Sequence record: MT446421.1
Reading direction: 5' to 3' (one strand)
Length of the DNA stretch: 64,000 nucleotides
DNA from: Escherichia virus TH55
Both the position numbers and the translations under genes were made by a program. Of the stretch, positions 34,624 through 39,269 are shown piece by piece (within the stretch, counting starts at the first letter, position 1; every line of letters begins with the position of its first letter). The notes beneath the pieces were generated by a model, which was not told the origin of the DNA, did not search any database, and saw only the letters and a list, made by a program, of their open reading frames with translations.

Positions 34624-35300
34624 TATATTACCTTATTAATTTTATCAAAAAGTTCTTCGAGTGTGCCATTGTTTTTAATAACAATGTCACTAGCTAGTGG
34701 TGGAAGTCCAGCTTCCGTAATGTGTGTATCGGTAGAATGATTTGCTTCATCGCGTTCTACAAAGATTATTGTAGCACCCATCGCCCGAAGCGAATCAAGT
34801 TCGTTCTTTTGACGAACATCTGGGACAACGTAATATTTATATCCAGAATAGAGGTTGTCAAGATAATCGCACGCAAAAGTTTTAATCCAAAACATGCTGT
34901 CGAACTCTGTACAAACGATGTCAGTTCCAAGGGTCTGCATGAAACGTCTAACTGTCCAGGGCTCAACATTATTTAGTGTGTGAAATTCAATGATTTTACG
35001 AACCATATCTGGATTCGGAAGGTCAAGATTGTATTGTTGTTTCAACCATTCAAGAGCATCAACCAGAAGAATATAAGCTTCGGTGTTGTTCATTATCAAG
35101 GTTTTTTCACGGTCATAACCTTGTCCATCAAAATTTTCCAGGGTCAAATTGTGTGGCAGGTCTTGACGAATCCACGCTTTATAAAGCGCTTCTTTAATCG
35201 GACCTGCAAGCTGCCACTTTGTTCCGTTTTGACTAATAACATAATCAGCAGTCGTATCTTTACCACTGCGTTTTTTACCCACAATCGCAATTAATTTCAT
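34623..35300 (-). CDS. 1: deoxynucleoside monophosphate kinase
   Basis: 225 aa; P-loop GKKRSGKDTTADY...QLAGPIKEAL and C-terminal DTHITEAGLP match remembered T4 gp1. Confidence 0.9.
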
Positions 35301-35896
35301 ACGTTTCTCATAGATGGATGCATTGACTTAGACCTGATTTCCTGTTGCATTGCTGCATTACTATCAATCTGTGGTCTACCTTCTATTATTATACCATCAA
35401 TTTCTACAGCAAAAGACTTAAAGTTAAAAGTTGCTGTTGCATTGATAGCCGGGTCAGAATCTTCTTTATATGAATACTGAATCTCTGACAGGTCGGACGG
35501 CCATGCTCCATAGTAATGGATTGACATGACAATTTTGTCCTTGTTGTTATCTAAGATATGAAGCGTGACCGCTTCGGGACGACCCTTCGGATGCCATGCT
35601 TTTGATTCGTGTGTGATGTAGTTGTTGAGCGAGAGCATCCATTTATAAATGTCAAGCCATGCTCTTAGGTCTTTGTCACACAGAAAGTTAACAATCAGTG
35701 GGTCGAATTCTATTGTACTACCAGGAAGACTGGAGCGATTTATACCTTGTGTTCCCCCAGGAACATCTGTCACAGGGATGTGAACACCAGGGAGGGTAAC
35801 GTCTTGAACGTTGAGTTTAAAGGTCTGTGTGAGGTTTGAATCGCTTACCTCTAATATAAAGTTAGTCGTGTTAGTTTGATTATATAAACCTGACAT
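35297..35896 (-). CDS. 3: tail completion / sheath stabiliser protein (gp3-like)
   Basis: 199 aa ORF in position of T4 gene 3; ATGA overlap with gene 1; assigned by synteny. Confidence 0.65.
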   Translation of the reverse strand: MSGLYNQTNTTNFILEVSDSNLTQTFKLNVQDVTLPGVHIPVTDVPGGTQGINRSSLPGSTIEFDPLIVNFLCDKDLRAWLDIYKWMLSLNNYITHESKAWHPKGRPEAVTLHILDNNKDKIVMSIHYYGAWPSDLSEIQYSYKEDSDPAINATATFNFKSFAVEIDGIIIEGRPQIDSNAAMQQEIRSKSMHPSMRNV

Positions 35897-35981
35897 AATG
35901 CACCTTGTTTGCTTTAAAACAATCAGTGTTATAATGGTTCTAGACCTTTTGTCCTTACCAATAACACTGACCGATAATAGA

Positions 35982-36656
35982 TTATTTTATTAATGTGTTA
36001 AGTCTTAGCTTAGTCATAAACGGATAACGTTCCAACATTGGCTTTACCCAGTATCGAGGATGCAATTCCTTTTTATATGCTAAGACCAACTCTCGAGCTT
36101 GCTCGACGGTATCAACTCCGAAGTTTTTACACATTTCTTGCCTATCTTTTTCCCACCGGCGCTTTCTCAATTCATCCTGAATCTCTTTATTTTTAAAATG
36201 ACCATTATTGCGAGAATGTTTTGTACCCTTGGTTGGACTGTAATGTCTTCCTTTGACAAACCCATCCGGAATATTTTCCCATGGAAATAGTTTTATCGAT
36301 TTGACACCATTATTAAAGTAAACTTTACCGGTTTGACTTTTAGAAATATTGTCAGCGTGTCTACGTCTTAACCAACCAAATAATTTATTATTGCGTTTCA
36401 AATACTTGCTTGACTGGCACATGGATGTAGCAGCAAAACTTAAACCTGGATTTGTAGGATATATTTTAACCAATAGTTGATGGGCTACATAATGTTCCTC
36501 AGGAGTCAAATCGACCAGATTATCTGGGTCATTTGAACCACCCATACATTTCGGAATGATGTGATGAGATTCTTTATATGAAATCAGGACCCTGTTACGG
36601 GCCCTTTCAATTAACGATGAATATATAAACTGATAATTCAAAGTGAATTTCTCCAT
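35982..36656 (-). CDS. free-standing HNH homing endonuclease
   Basis: 224 aa; HNH core [29 protein letters not shown]; inserted between genes 3 and 2. Confidence 0.75.
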
Positions 36657-37465
36657 ACTTTCTGGGAAGAATATCTTTTGCCTTTTGAAAAAAACTGCTG
36701 AAGGGGGAGTAATACCACATTTGCCCAGTCGCTGGGCTTGATTTCAGTGATAGTACCTTTTATATTGCCGGGTATATATGCTTTAATCATCTGGTCAGCC
36801 CCTTTAAATCCCTTCACCTTTGACCAATCAATCTTCAGATGAGTCTTGTTTGTAATCGTAGGAGTATTAGCATATTGCTTAAGAAGTTCCTCAAGGAACT
36901 CTTGACGTGCCTTCGGTGGAATATAGTGCAAGTTCAAACCGTACATCAAATTATGCTTACCTAGACCAAGATAAATGATTAACGGATATTTGTCCCAGTA
37001 TGGAAGAGTATCCTTATGCTTTGCATCATAGATATAAGCATAAAGTTTACCTGGTTGAGGTTTAGCCGTTACGTGGCCGCGAACTGATTTCTTAATTGTC
37101 TCTGCGAACCATCTGGCAGATTTGGTGTTGCTTGCAGCGCCTTCGTTAGCAATCTTATCTCTTATGCTCTTCCTAAAGCTATTCACCATTATCAGCTGGC
37201 GTTCAGCCTTCGTAAGTTTACCAGCAGGTTTCTTTTTGAGCTTGGATACTTTATAAGCAGTCTGAATTCTTGAATGATACCTCGACATGCTTTTGGTAAA
37301 GGTCGAATAGTTGATTCCTTTCTCTTCAGCAAACTTCTTCGAGGTCATTCCTTTTTCTTTTGCTGTATAAAATTCAACCCCTATCTCAACCCATTGTTGT
37401 TCTGATTTACTGGGTTTCGGACCTGGTTTATCTGCAGATTCATTGATAAATGTAAAAATACTCAT
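36638..37465 (-). CDS. 2: DNA end protector protein gp2
   Basis: About 275 aa from MSIFTF; position between 3 and 4; ATGA coupling with gene 4; assigned by synteny and length. Confidence 0.7.
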
Positions 37466-37911
37466 CCTTTCCATCCTAATTTTTTCAGGCCGTTTTCGGT
37501 TAGAATGCGAAATGTAATACCCATTTTATCTGCGGTAGCTTGTGCAGCTTTCCACTTATCCCTGTTCACAGAATAAGTGTACATTTCGTTTATATAACGT
37601 TTCTTACTGGCTGCTGTATTATTTACAGGAATTTTTGGGGGCTGTGTTTCTTTGAATGGTTTTATTTCAATAAAAAATTGCTGGCCGGTATCAAATTTAC
37701 ACCATATATCCATATAGTAACGGCGCTTTTTGCCATCAGCATTGCTAAAATATGGAATAACAACAGTCTCAGAACCCCATTGAACAACATTGGGGTGAGT
37801 GTCGAGCCACTTGAACATATATGCCTCCCAACTCGACCTGTACTGTATTTTCTTCCAATCACCTTTATATTTTTCTAGATTTGTTGGTTTAAACTTCCCG
37901 GAGTACGCCAT
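37462..37911 (-). CDS. 4: head completion protein gp4
   Basis: About 149 aa from MAYSGKFKP (T4 gp4-like N-terminus and length). Confidence 0.75.
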
Positions 37912-38596
37912 TTTTAAGTACCTTACAATTTTCACCATGCCAACGTTTATAGTTGCCTGGATTTGTTATTTTTCCACAGTGTTCACAGGTGTGACGGGGA
38001 GCATTTTTATTAAGCTCTGATAAACGTTTTCTGACATCATCAGTAATACCTTGCTTTATTTTCTCGCTATGATTTACCAAAACTCTTTCTTTATTTGCCT
38101 TGGATATTTTTGCTCGCCAATCATCTGTAAACACTCTTTCTGATAATTTCTTACAATGTTCTTCAGAGAACTTTTTACCCTTTGCTGCTTCTGACAACTT
38201 TTTGCAATGCTCTTCAGAGCGCGGGCCATATTTCTTACCTTTAAGAGCTTTTGAAATATTTTCACATGTTTGTTTTGAACGTTTACGTCCAGTGTGAAAC
38301 TTAATGGAAGTCTCAACAGCGCGGATGCGCACCCATTCAAATTGTTTGTTATTGTAATTGTTGGAACCCATTAGAATTTTCGCAGCATGTGCTAACGAGT
38401 GATTATCTGGATAAATTTTAACCAATAACAGGTGGGCGACAAAATGTTCAGGAGCGGTAAGCTCGACTAAATTTTCATCAGTATCTAATCCGCCCATACA
38501 TCTTGGAATAATGTGATGTTTCTCTTTGTAACCATCAATGGGTGCTCGATTTTTAGCTCGTTGGATTAAGTTATTGTAATGTTTTAGATAGTTCAT
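37889..38596 (-). CDS. free-standing HNH homing endonuclease with NUMOD3-like repeats
   Basis: 235 aa; HNH core HHIIPRCMGGLDTDENLVELTAPEHFVAH; two repeats SEEHCKKLSEAAKGKK; C-terminal CxxC; minus-strand TATAAATA at 38615-38622; inserted between 4 and 53. Confidence 0.75.
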   Translation of the reverse strand: MNYLKHYNNLIQRAKNRAPIDGYKEKHHIIPRCMGGLDTDENLVELTAPEHFVAHLLLVKIYPDNHSLAHAAKILMGSNNYNNKQFEWVRIRAVETSIKFHTGRKRSKQTCENISKALKGKKYGPRSEEHCKKLSEAAKGKKFSEEHCKKLSERVFTDDWRAKISKANKERVLVNHSEKIKQGITDDVRKRLSELNKNAPRHTCEHCGKITNPGNYKRWHGENCKVLKNGVLREV

Positions 38597-38614
38597 TTAT
38601 ATTTTCCTCATATG

Positions 38615-38622
38615 TATTTATA
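38615..38622 (-). promoter_or_regulatory. late promoter TATAAATA (HNH endonuclease gene)
   Basis: Minus-strand TATAAATA 19 nt upstream of HNH ORF start; overlaps the divergent plus-strand late promoter of gene 53. Confidence 0.5.
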
Positions 38623-38626
38623 AATA
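38619..38626 (+). promoter_or_regulatory. late promoter TATAAATA (gene 53)
   Basis: Exact late consensus 41 nt upstream of gene 53 ATG. Confidence 0.65.
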
Positions 38627-38666
38627 GAGTATATCATACTTAAACCATATTGTAAATGGAGGCTTT

Positions 38667-39269
38667 ATGCTTTTTTCATTTTTTAACCCAATTGATTATG
38701 ATGCTAAAACAATCAGAAAAAACTCGGCATCATTAACGAAAGAAGATGTCTTAAGCATCCCAATGACTGACATCTTCAGAAACTATCGTGCATATTTTGA
38801 TAAGGTCGCGGTTAATTATACACCGAAAACATATTACATCGCCGGAGCTCCGAGACCTGAAGAACTTGCATATCAGCTCTATGGTAATACTCAACTCTAT
38901 TGGGTTCTCCTTATGCTTAATAATATCTATGACCCGTATTATGGTTGGATATGTTCACAAGAATCATCATATCAGGCATCAATTCAACGCTATTCGAATA
39001 TAGGTGGTAATCAGGTTCTTTATCATGTAAATGAAGATGGTGAAAAATTCTGGAATCTTGTTTCTTATCCTGATAATCCATACACATGGTATGATAAAGG
39101 TGATAAGAACAAATTATACCCACAGTATGAAGGCCCATTAGCTGCAGTGGATATCTACGAAGATGCTATTCGCAAAAATGAATATAAACGAGAAATAAAG
39201 ATAATCGACCCTAATGATATCGAATCATTTATTTCGGCATTAATCCGCGAGATGGAGAAGGCGCTATGA
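38667..39269 (+). CDS. 53: baseplate wedge protein gp53
   Basis: 200 aa; first gene of plus-strand late cluster, late promoter 38619-38626; ATGA overlap with gene 5. Confidence 0.75.
   Translation: MLFSFFNPIDYDAKTIRKNSASLTKEDVLSIPMTDIFRNYRAYFDKVAVNYTPKTYYIAGAPRPEELAYQLYGNTQLYWVLLMLNNIYDPYYGWICSQESSYQASIQRYSNIGGNQVLYHVNEDGEKFWNLVSYPDNPYTWYDKGDKNKLYPQYEGPLAAVDIYEDAIRKNEYKREIKIIDPNDIESFISALIREMEKAL

Follow-up and report, generated by a model that had tools for sequence, protein, structure and literature searches.

The open reading frame (ORF) on the minus strand at positions 35982–36656 of the window (the whole 64,000-nucleotide stretch of Escherichia virus TH55 that was analyzed) most probably encodes, at about 85% by our estimate, a free-standing homing endonuclease of the T4 'Mob' type, which sequence comparison places as an ORF-only cassette at the stop codon of gene 2 within the late 4-2-3 unit. 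That T4-like phages carry free-standing HNH endonuclease genes of the 'Mob' kind is textbook knowledge. The identity of this particular gene as a homing endonuclease was also already public (GenBank entries RB32ORF146c, VR7ORF161c and QUL77593.1), and what we add here is the anatomy of the cassette (a stop-codon swap and a conserved start), the breadth of the lineage, a linked patch in gene 2 and a coding hairpin shared with mobE.

Cassette anatomy at the gene 2 stop codon

The 2.4-kb stretch around the endonuclease gene was 100% identical to Escherichia phage UPEC07 (GenBank MW250787.1; genus Gaprivervirus), in which the identical ORF (QUL77593.1) carries the label 'homing endonuclease'. In its longest form the ORF (35982–36656, minus strand) was intact, comprised 224 aa from an ATG at 36656, as given in the ORF list, and contained the HNH motif quoted in an earlier note on this DNA; in the form conserved across the family it comprised 219 aa (35982–36641, minus strand) and started with a TTG at 36641–36639. 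Downstream on the minus strand lies gene 3 (tail completion and sheath stabilizer; 35297–35896), identified by the Pfam tail tube family Phage_T4_gp19 and by annotation, and upstream lies gene 2 (DNA end protector; 36638–37465, or to 37474 in the ORF list), identified by the annotation of the identical record, as a Pfam search with gene 2 gave no match. Beyond gene 2 follow gene 4 (TnsA-like nuclease fold) and, further on, gene 1 (dNMP kinase), according to Pfam and MW250787.1. The earlier note had placed the ORF at the junction of genes 3 and 2 and mentioned a short spacer between them in T4; the neighbors were confirmed by Pfam and the identical GenBank record, and the spacer measured 85 nt in Gaprivervirus genomes without the endonuclease and 106 nt in the T4-type phage RB14. 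Gene 4 and gene 2 were listed mechanically as ORFs of 158 and 278 aa, while relatives conserve 149–150 and 275 aa, respectively; the UPEC07 annotation retains the long gene 4 (37462–37938 region), which overlaps a second HNH gene by 50 nt.

Searching for Gaprivervirus relatives at an identity of at least 90% returned 33 records. Eight of these were filled and represented six phages (UPEC07, TH22, VR25, VR7, fPSFA and P479), while the 25 empty records matched in two pieces, with genes 2 and 3 adjacent and the endonuclease gene missing. Aligning the junction, as the earlier note had proposed, revealed a clean 659-bp difference exactly at the gene 2 stop codon, which we mapped by an anchored comparison of 13 genomes to 35985–36643 (or equally 35986–36644, given a 1-nt ambiguity) on the minus strand. 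The block is a single ORF, lies between genes 2 and 3 and shares their strand; it occurs sporadically among close relatives, and the empty junctions were identical, with RZ, ECML-359, SP18 and others reading ...GAGAAATTCA/TAATCTATTATCGG across the empty site (the slash marks the insertion point). Nor was the gene present in all T4-like genomes, since only 84 of ~2008 records matching gp2 and gp3, and 37 of the 504 T4-type records, were filled. The insertion proposed in the earlier note was therefore borne out.

In the inserted block, 'CT' precedes 219 sense codons, and the endonuclease frame brings no stop codon of its own. The coding strand of the empty allele reads ...TGG AGA AAT TCA TAA TCTATTATCGG... 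and that of the filled allele ...TGG AGA AAT TCA CTT TGA ATT ATC ... AAA TAA TCTATTATCGG.... Gene 2 thus takes a new TGA stop from the insert (36638–36640, minus strand), which forms a TTGA stop/start overlap with the endonuclease, and gp2 gains one Leu codon (...WRNSL* versus ...WRNS*). The native gene 2 TAA (35982–35984, minus strand) now serves as the stop codon of the endonuclease, and the sequence from this TAA onwards is identical in filled and empty genomes. The same swap was seen in T4-type phages, in which gp2 is encoded by 828 nt with an ATGA overlap in the filled RB32 but by 825 nt in the empty RB14, with identical sequence past the TAA; the ATGA geometry at the gene 2 stop was found in RB32, Pinarejo and Konradin. 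A search against Rfam yielded no known RNA family over 35000–39000 and no intron family at E≤1. The 6-nt sequence ATTATC, repeated at the two ends of the insert, is most simply explained as a by-product of conserved Asn-Tyr codons. Separately, the intergenic region between genes 2 and 3 carries a strong hairpin (35920–35973, minus strand; −23.9 kcal/mol, z=−3.6) followed by UUGUUUU. This hairpin begins ~15 nt downstream from the point of insertion and does not differ between filled and empty genomes; termination and mRNA stabilization between the two genes are possible roles.

To define the start codon, we relied on the homologues of the protein. Among 27 full-length homologues in a collection of 5.8 billion proteins, 26 start with MNY, the M aligning with codon 6 of the 224-aa ORF, and the Mob relatives likewise begin at the residue equivalent to this codon. 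Codon 6 is TTG in all five Gaprivervirus copies and ATG in other genera, and the genes of VR25, P479 and fPSFA are annotated in the 660-nt form. Because the homologues start at codon 6, the conserved arrangement is a 219-aa protein with a 4-nt TTGA overlap, the stop/start overlap being ATGA or TAATG elsewhere. That the ORF overlaps gene 2 at its 3' end, as noticed earlier, is thus correct; counted from the conserved TTG the overlap is 4 nt long, and counted from the ATG at 36656 it would be 19 nt. This ATG adds 5 codons, and we rejected it as the conserved start since it sits in native gene 2 sequence that is also present in empty genomes, VR7 has TTG in its place and 26 of the 27 homologues lack it; UPEC07 may nevertheless use it. 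A Shine-Dalgarno-like GGAG (36651–36654, minus strand) is located 9 nt upstream of the TTG, within the last gene 2 codons (W-R), and in T4-type phages the filled allele reads TGGAGC here, with the GGAG, and the empty one TGGTCA. A stop/start overlap of this kind has been discussed for the translational coupling of T4 mobE (PMC2988022).

The nearest upstream T4-type late promoter motif, TATAAATA, was found by pattern search at 38615–38622 (minus strand), and no further TATAAATA occurred on this strand from 38615 to 34841. Lacking a late promoter motif of its own, the endonuclease gene is best described as a passenger without a promoter in the late 4-2-3 unit, a status reported for several T4 mob and seg genes (PMC2988022). 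In the interval separating gene 53 from the second HNH gene, TATAAATA motifs overlap on the two strands (38615–38626), as expected for divergent late promoters of the 4-2-3 and 53-5 units. On the plus strand, we noticed a perfect MotA-box-plus-minus-10 motif (TGCTTTA, 13 nt, TATAAT; 35910–35935), which is antisense to genes 3 and 2 and starts 10 nt from the gene 3 ATG. The same arrangement occurs in the T4-type phages RB14 and RB32 and in Acinetobacter phage Konradin, and a TATAATGG element occurs in several other genera; the motif may equally be a sense-strand element (CCATTATA).

Further endonuclease genes were observed in the same block. A second Mob-type HNH gene (37889–38596, minus strand) encodes 235 aa including a NUMOD3 motif, shares 45% identity with the first over 137 aa and was inserted downstream of the leftward late promoter, between the divergent late promoters and gene 4 (37462–37911), whose start it overlaps. 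VR7, VR25, SP18 and ECML-359 lack it, and phage 212 carries it. The gene 4 sequences of UPEC07 and phage 212 share 98.7% identity, whereas identity to the gene 4 of genomes without the second HNH gene is only ~79%, against 95–99% for the rest of the block, which points to a whole-gene allele replacement linked to the second endonuclease. A third site, between genes 4 and 2, is occupied in P479, RZ, Yersinia phage P8 and fPSFA by endonuclease genes of a different family (PHROG 314, with a weak match to TIGR01453 'group I intron endonuclease'), located outside the window in the retrieved loci L010 (4763–5410), L016 (4104–4832), L017 (4104–4751) and L011 (3763–4491). In Konradin, another endonuclease gene likewise lies between gene 4 and gene 2. 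As the three sites are filled in differing combinations among relatives (3/2 and 4/53 in UPEC07, 3/2 and 4/2 in P479, 4/2 only in RZ and 4/53 only in phage 212), they appear to assort independently.

The protein and its site-specific lineage

The ORF is real rather than a chance reading frame, with tblastn matches to its N-terminal ~100 residues in 1073 phage records and a best non-self full-length match at E=1e-94. Its best T4 sequence match was MobB (49.5% identity over residues 6–107, E=1e-23, tblastn), and the mobE product of RB3 was 48.5% identical over residues 4–101 (tblastn). The protein also matched PHROG 655 'homing endonuclease' at E=8.9e-59. The Pfam HNH family (PF01844) scored 19.5 bits, below its gathering cut-off of 21.4, and HNH_5 scored 17.0 against a cut-off of 27.5, the sub-threshold score reflecting the divergence of the Mob subfamily from the Pfam seed; NCBIfam gave nothing beyond a sub-threshold IscB HNH match. 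The nuclease core of the beta-beta-alpha-metal type maps to 36462–36578 (minus strand), that is, residues 22–60 of the 219-aa form. Indeed, across 117 homologues the residues H26, H27, N41, E49 and H54 (219-aa numbering) were invariant and H50 was at least 90% conserved. In a profile search of PDB sequences, which gave marginal HNH-motif matches alone (E 0.016–0.4), these catalytic residues aligned with HNH motifs in three proteins: McrA, a group II intron maturase and Cas8-HNH. An AlphaFold model (mean pLDDT 91) predicted the strand-strand-helix order of the core fold at residues 24–60, and among the predicted viral structures of BFVD it clearly matched T4 MobB (P13329, 7e-12, the best named match) and MobC. 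Membership in the HNH/Mob family is therefore supported by sequence, by the invariant catalytic residues and by the predicted fold. Together with the precise empty sites, this supports the earlier reading of the gene as an intron-less, mobile HNH endonuclease insertion.

The C-terminal half (35985–36341, minus strand; ~residues 101–219) is specific to the lineage. It was confidently modeled and matched no known DNA-binding fold, and we presume, by analogy with the paradigm of Mob proteins, I-HmuI and I-TevI (PMC2988022), that it is the DNA-binding module conferring target specificity. An N-terminal HNH domain homologous to MobA-E joined to a distinct C-terminal region is the layout by which Mob-type proteins are defined (PMC2988022), and this is what we found here.

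When the C-terminal half alone was used in tblastn, it hit 77 phage records, at one place each, as opposed to 1073 for the whole protein. A chimeric query joining the gp2 C-terminus, the endonuclease C-terminus and the gp3 N-terminus was covered contiguously in 84 records, while ~1900 others matched gp2 and gp3 without the endonuclease. The order gene 2-endonuclease-gene 3 was present in all 14 inspected loci, which covered nine named genera: Gaprivervirus, Tequatrovirus (RB32, plus phage Pinarejo), Dhakavirus, Kanagawavirus, Lazarusvirus, Karamvirus, Winklervirus, Hadassahvirus and Gualtarvirus, in addition to unclassified Serratia and Citrobacter phages. Scanning IMG/VR with the orthologue alignment mostly retrieved relatives of the N-terminal domain with other C-termini, and full-length loci numbered four. 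The GenBank record of RB32 from 2006 had already described its gene (RB32ORF146c) as 'similar to mobB; not conserved from T4 position'.

Linked gene 2 patch, coding hairpin and history of the cassette

In the 3' coding region of gene 2, 35–72 nt from the insertion point, we observed a polymorphic patch (36678–36717, minus strand). Between UPEC07 and the empty genome of ECML-359, 13 of its 40 positions differ, a clustering that none of 2000 shuffles reproduced, compared with ~7 of 1363 positions in genes 1 and 3 and ~1% in most of gene 2; the substitutions in the patch are mostly synonymous. Three haplotypes were distinguished in the 13 genomes: the first in the filled UPEC07, VR25, fPSFA and P479 and in the empty RZ, the second in VR7 (filled) and SP18 (empty), and the third in six empty genomes and no filled one. 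The tie between patch and element is thus not strict, given that RZ carries the first haplotype without the gene and that VR7 shares its patch with the empty SP18. The homologous patch also differs between RB32 (filled) and RB14 (empty), and it is bimodal among T4-type records, with the RB32 type in 53 and the other type in ~451. Querying the 504 T4-type records with the patch together with the 5' end of the endonuclease gene identified 37 filled records and, at an identity of at least 95%, 53 records, precisely the number found with the patch. As both counts are 53, all 37 filled records are of the RB32 type, 16 records of this type are empty, and the ~451 records of the other type are all empty.

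We consider the patch a candidate for the recognition or nicking region of the endonuclease or, alternatively, for a co-converted marker. Linkage over 35–72 nt is expected from hitch-hiking alone, and the patch therefore need not be the target. An equally open candidate is the junction itself (...GAGAAATTCA/TAATCTATTATC), which the insert splits; directly after the gp2 stop, TAA-TCTATTATC is conserved in three genera. As to the origin of the patch, a single contiguous co-conversion tract was discarded because the 35 nt between patch and insert are of the local, empty-genome type, and patchy repair may be the source. A comparable polymorphic block surrounds the nick site of MobE in nrdB (PMC2790892), which the gene 2 patch mirrors.

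Within the ORF itself, a terminator scan detected a GC-rich hairpin with a 7-bp stem and a 6-nt loop (36586–36605, minus strand), positioned 37 nt into the ORF on the codons R-A-R-N-R-V-L and followed by GAUUUCAUAU. Hairpins of 6–8 bp on the R-A-x-x-R codons, with differing compensating stems, recurred in 11 orthologue lineages, and the native hairpin proved more stable than 1000 synonymous-codon shuffles per lineage at p≤0.01 in 8 of the 11, the others ranging at 5–15%, which indicates selection on the nucleotide sequence. The paralogue at 37889–38596 lacks the hairpin. In T4 mobE, an internal terminator that stops 30–50% of transcripts has been mapped 27 nt past the AUG (PMC2790892), and it lies on the same codons as the endonuclease hairpin. 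The U-tract is poor (there is none in RB32), which makes a role as terminator uncertain. Judging by the sequence pattern and the analogy to mobE, the hairpin is probably a weak terminator or attenuator of endonuclease expression, and may thus represent a conserved self-limiting element.

How the cassette would spread can be outlined by analogy to MobE (PMC2790892, PMC2988022). When a relative without the endonuclease gene infects the same cell, the protein would nick or cut that relative's allele close to where gene 2 ends, and recombinational repair would then copy the cassette and flanking gene 2 markers into the cut genome. The carrier would itself be protected either by the substitutions in the patch or by the insertion, which splits the site, while translational coupling to gp2, the weak TTG start and the internal hairpin would keep expression low.

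The selective record bears on whether such a protein still functions. The dN/dS ratio was 0.09–0.18 overall (0.04–0.14 for the N-terminal and 0.19–0.37 for the C-terminal half), and none of the nine copies checked contained an internal stop, which argues for a protein that is functional now or was so recently. A decaying or inactive relic, that is, a frame that stays open through linkage to the essential genes 2 and 3 but neither cuts nor moves, is accordingly improbable, even though the life cycle of homing endonucleases predicts such stages. Some features would suit it: Shigella phage CT01 (OK018184.1, 74215–74343) retains only a C-terminal remnant corresponding to 36% of the query, adjoined by an RB32-type gene 2 patch; the 16 empty T4-type records mentioned above (e.g. 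RPN226, F26 and EC128) carry the linked patch without the gene; and the Gaprivervirus copies start with a weak TTG. Yet purifying selection is evident in both halves, also between two Gaprivervirus variants, the catalytic residues are invariant and the hairpin is maintained by compensatory changes, all of which speak against it for the gene studied here. The CT01 fragment and the 16 patch-only records are themselves candidates for stages of decay and loss or, alternatively, for co-conversion without the gene.

With respect to its history, endonuclease identity tracked the identity of gp2/gp3 (r=0.85 over 55 pairs; means of 58% versus 61.5%), suggesting that for most of its history the gene stayed within lineages, being lost and regained there, and did not often jump from one genus to another. 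This tracking, along with the purifying selection and the constant position beside the gene of the DNA end protector, might also be expected of an ancestral resident gene that was lost many times, or of a domesticated nuclease (e.g. for DNA-end or head completion near gp2 and gp4), but we give such scenarios very little credence, since >90% of genomes in each group lack the gene and their empty sites are identical to the nucleotide, a repeated exact 659-bp deletion that restores the original stop is hard to obtain, paralogues occupy unrelated T4 loci (e.g. mobB and mobE), and individual pairs are incongruent. Indeed, the endonucleases of the Acinetobacter phages Konradin and Morttis (loci L007 and L102), which belong to different genera, are 98% identical within flanks that are 89% identical (gp2 92%, gp3 86%), as if the cassette had recently been transferred laterally, while those of UPEC07 and VR7 are 89% identical within flanks of 97–100% identity. 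Overall, the history of this mobile endonuclease gene is consistent with the cycle of invasion, fixation, decay and loss expected of its kind.

A more far-reaching version of the homing endonuclease reading has three parts, and we hold it only tentatively, as we consider it somewhat doubtful that all of them apply together. First, the lineage would have resided at the gene 2 stop throughout the divergence of Tevenvirinae and Twarogvirinae. Second, the endonuclease would drive recurrent allele replacement of the last ~25 gp2 codons, the patch being its recognition or nicking site under cut-or-escape selection. Third, the coding hairpin would be a family-wide self-limiting switch derived from a common ancestor with mobE.

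Outside annotation quality, the importance of these observations is slight. As by-products, they provide a nucleotide-exact pair of empty and filled sites, susceptible-looking and resistant-looking gene 2 alleles in three haplotypes, with RZ as a 'resistant-type but empty' genome, and a conserved hairpin placed on the mobE terminator codons, so that the lineage offers a convenient second test case for target choice by nicking Mob enzymes and for self-limited expression. They also mark gene 2, gene 4 and neighboring markers in this block as unreliable for fine-scale phage phylogeny.

Comparison with known systems

The intron-encoded endonucleases I-HmuI and I-TevIII share the HNH chemistry and the two-module layout of nuclease and DNA-binding parts (PMC2988022), a likeness that is predicted for the protein studied here. 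These enzymes lie in group I introns, whereas the present endonuclease is intron-less, its inserted block being exactly an ORF, and a profile search of PDB sequences returned no significant match to the solved structures of I-HmuI or I-TevIII.

Closer relatives are the annotated orthologues RB32ORF146c and VR7ORF161c, which are located at the same junction and which, like QUL77593.1, are known from annotation only. The RB32, VR7 and UPEC07 entries give no boundaries, start-codon choice, linked polymorphism or hairpin, and our literature search found no paper on the endonuclease lineage between genes 2 and 3. The GenBank notes on the VR7, VR25 and RB32 genes describe them as 'similar to MobB', in line with the best T4 match obtained here. 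MobB differs, however, in its locus, the alpha-gt region (PMC2988022, Table 1), and in its C-terminal part, and it is itself a putative endonuclease whose activity has not been demonstrated (PMC2988022).

The most instructive comparison is with MobE, which is encoded between nrdA and nrdB of T4 (Wilson & Edgell 2009, PMC2790892) and for which nicking, termination and homing have been demonstrated, while the endonuclease between genes 2 and 3 is known from its sequence. The two differ in their C-terminal halves and in their sites, the present one lying between genes 2 and 3 in a late structural operon and that of MobE at the nrd genes. The hairpin described here is also followed by a poorer U-tract, and, unlike for MobE, our pattern search found no compensating promoter for the downstream gene inside the endonuclease ORF. 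Conversely, both proteins have homologous N-terminal HNH domains, both are encoded by promoterless cassettes with a start that overlaps the preceding gene's stop, both carry a hairpin over R-A-x-x-R codons ~30–37 nt into the ORF, and in both cases a polymorphic block in a conserved neighboring gene separates carriers from non-carriers (PMC2790892).
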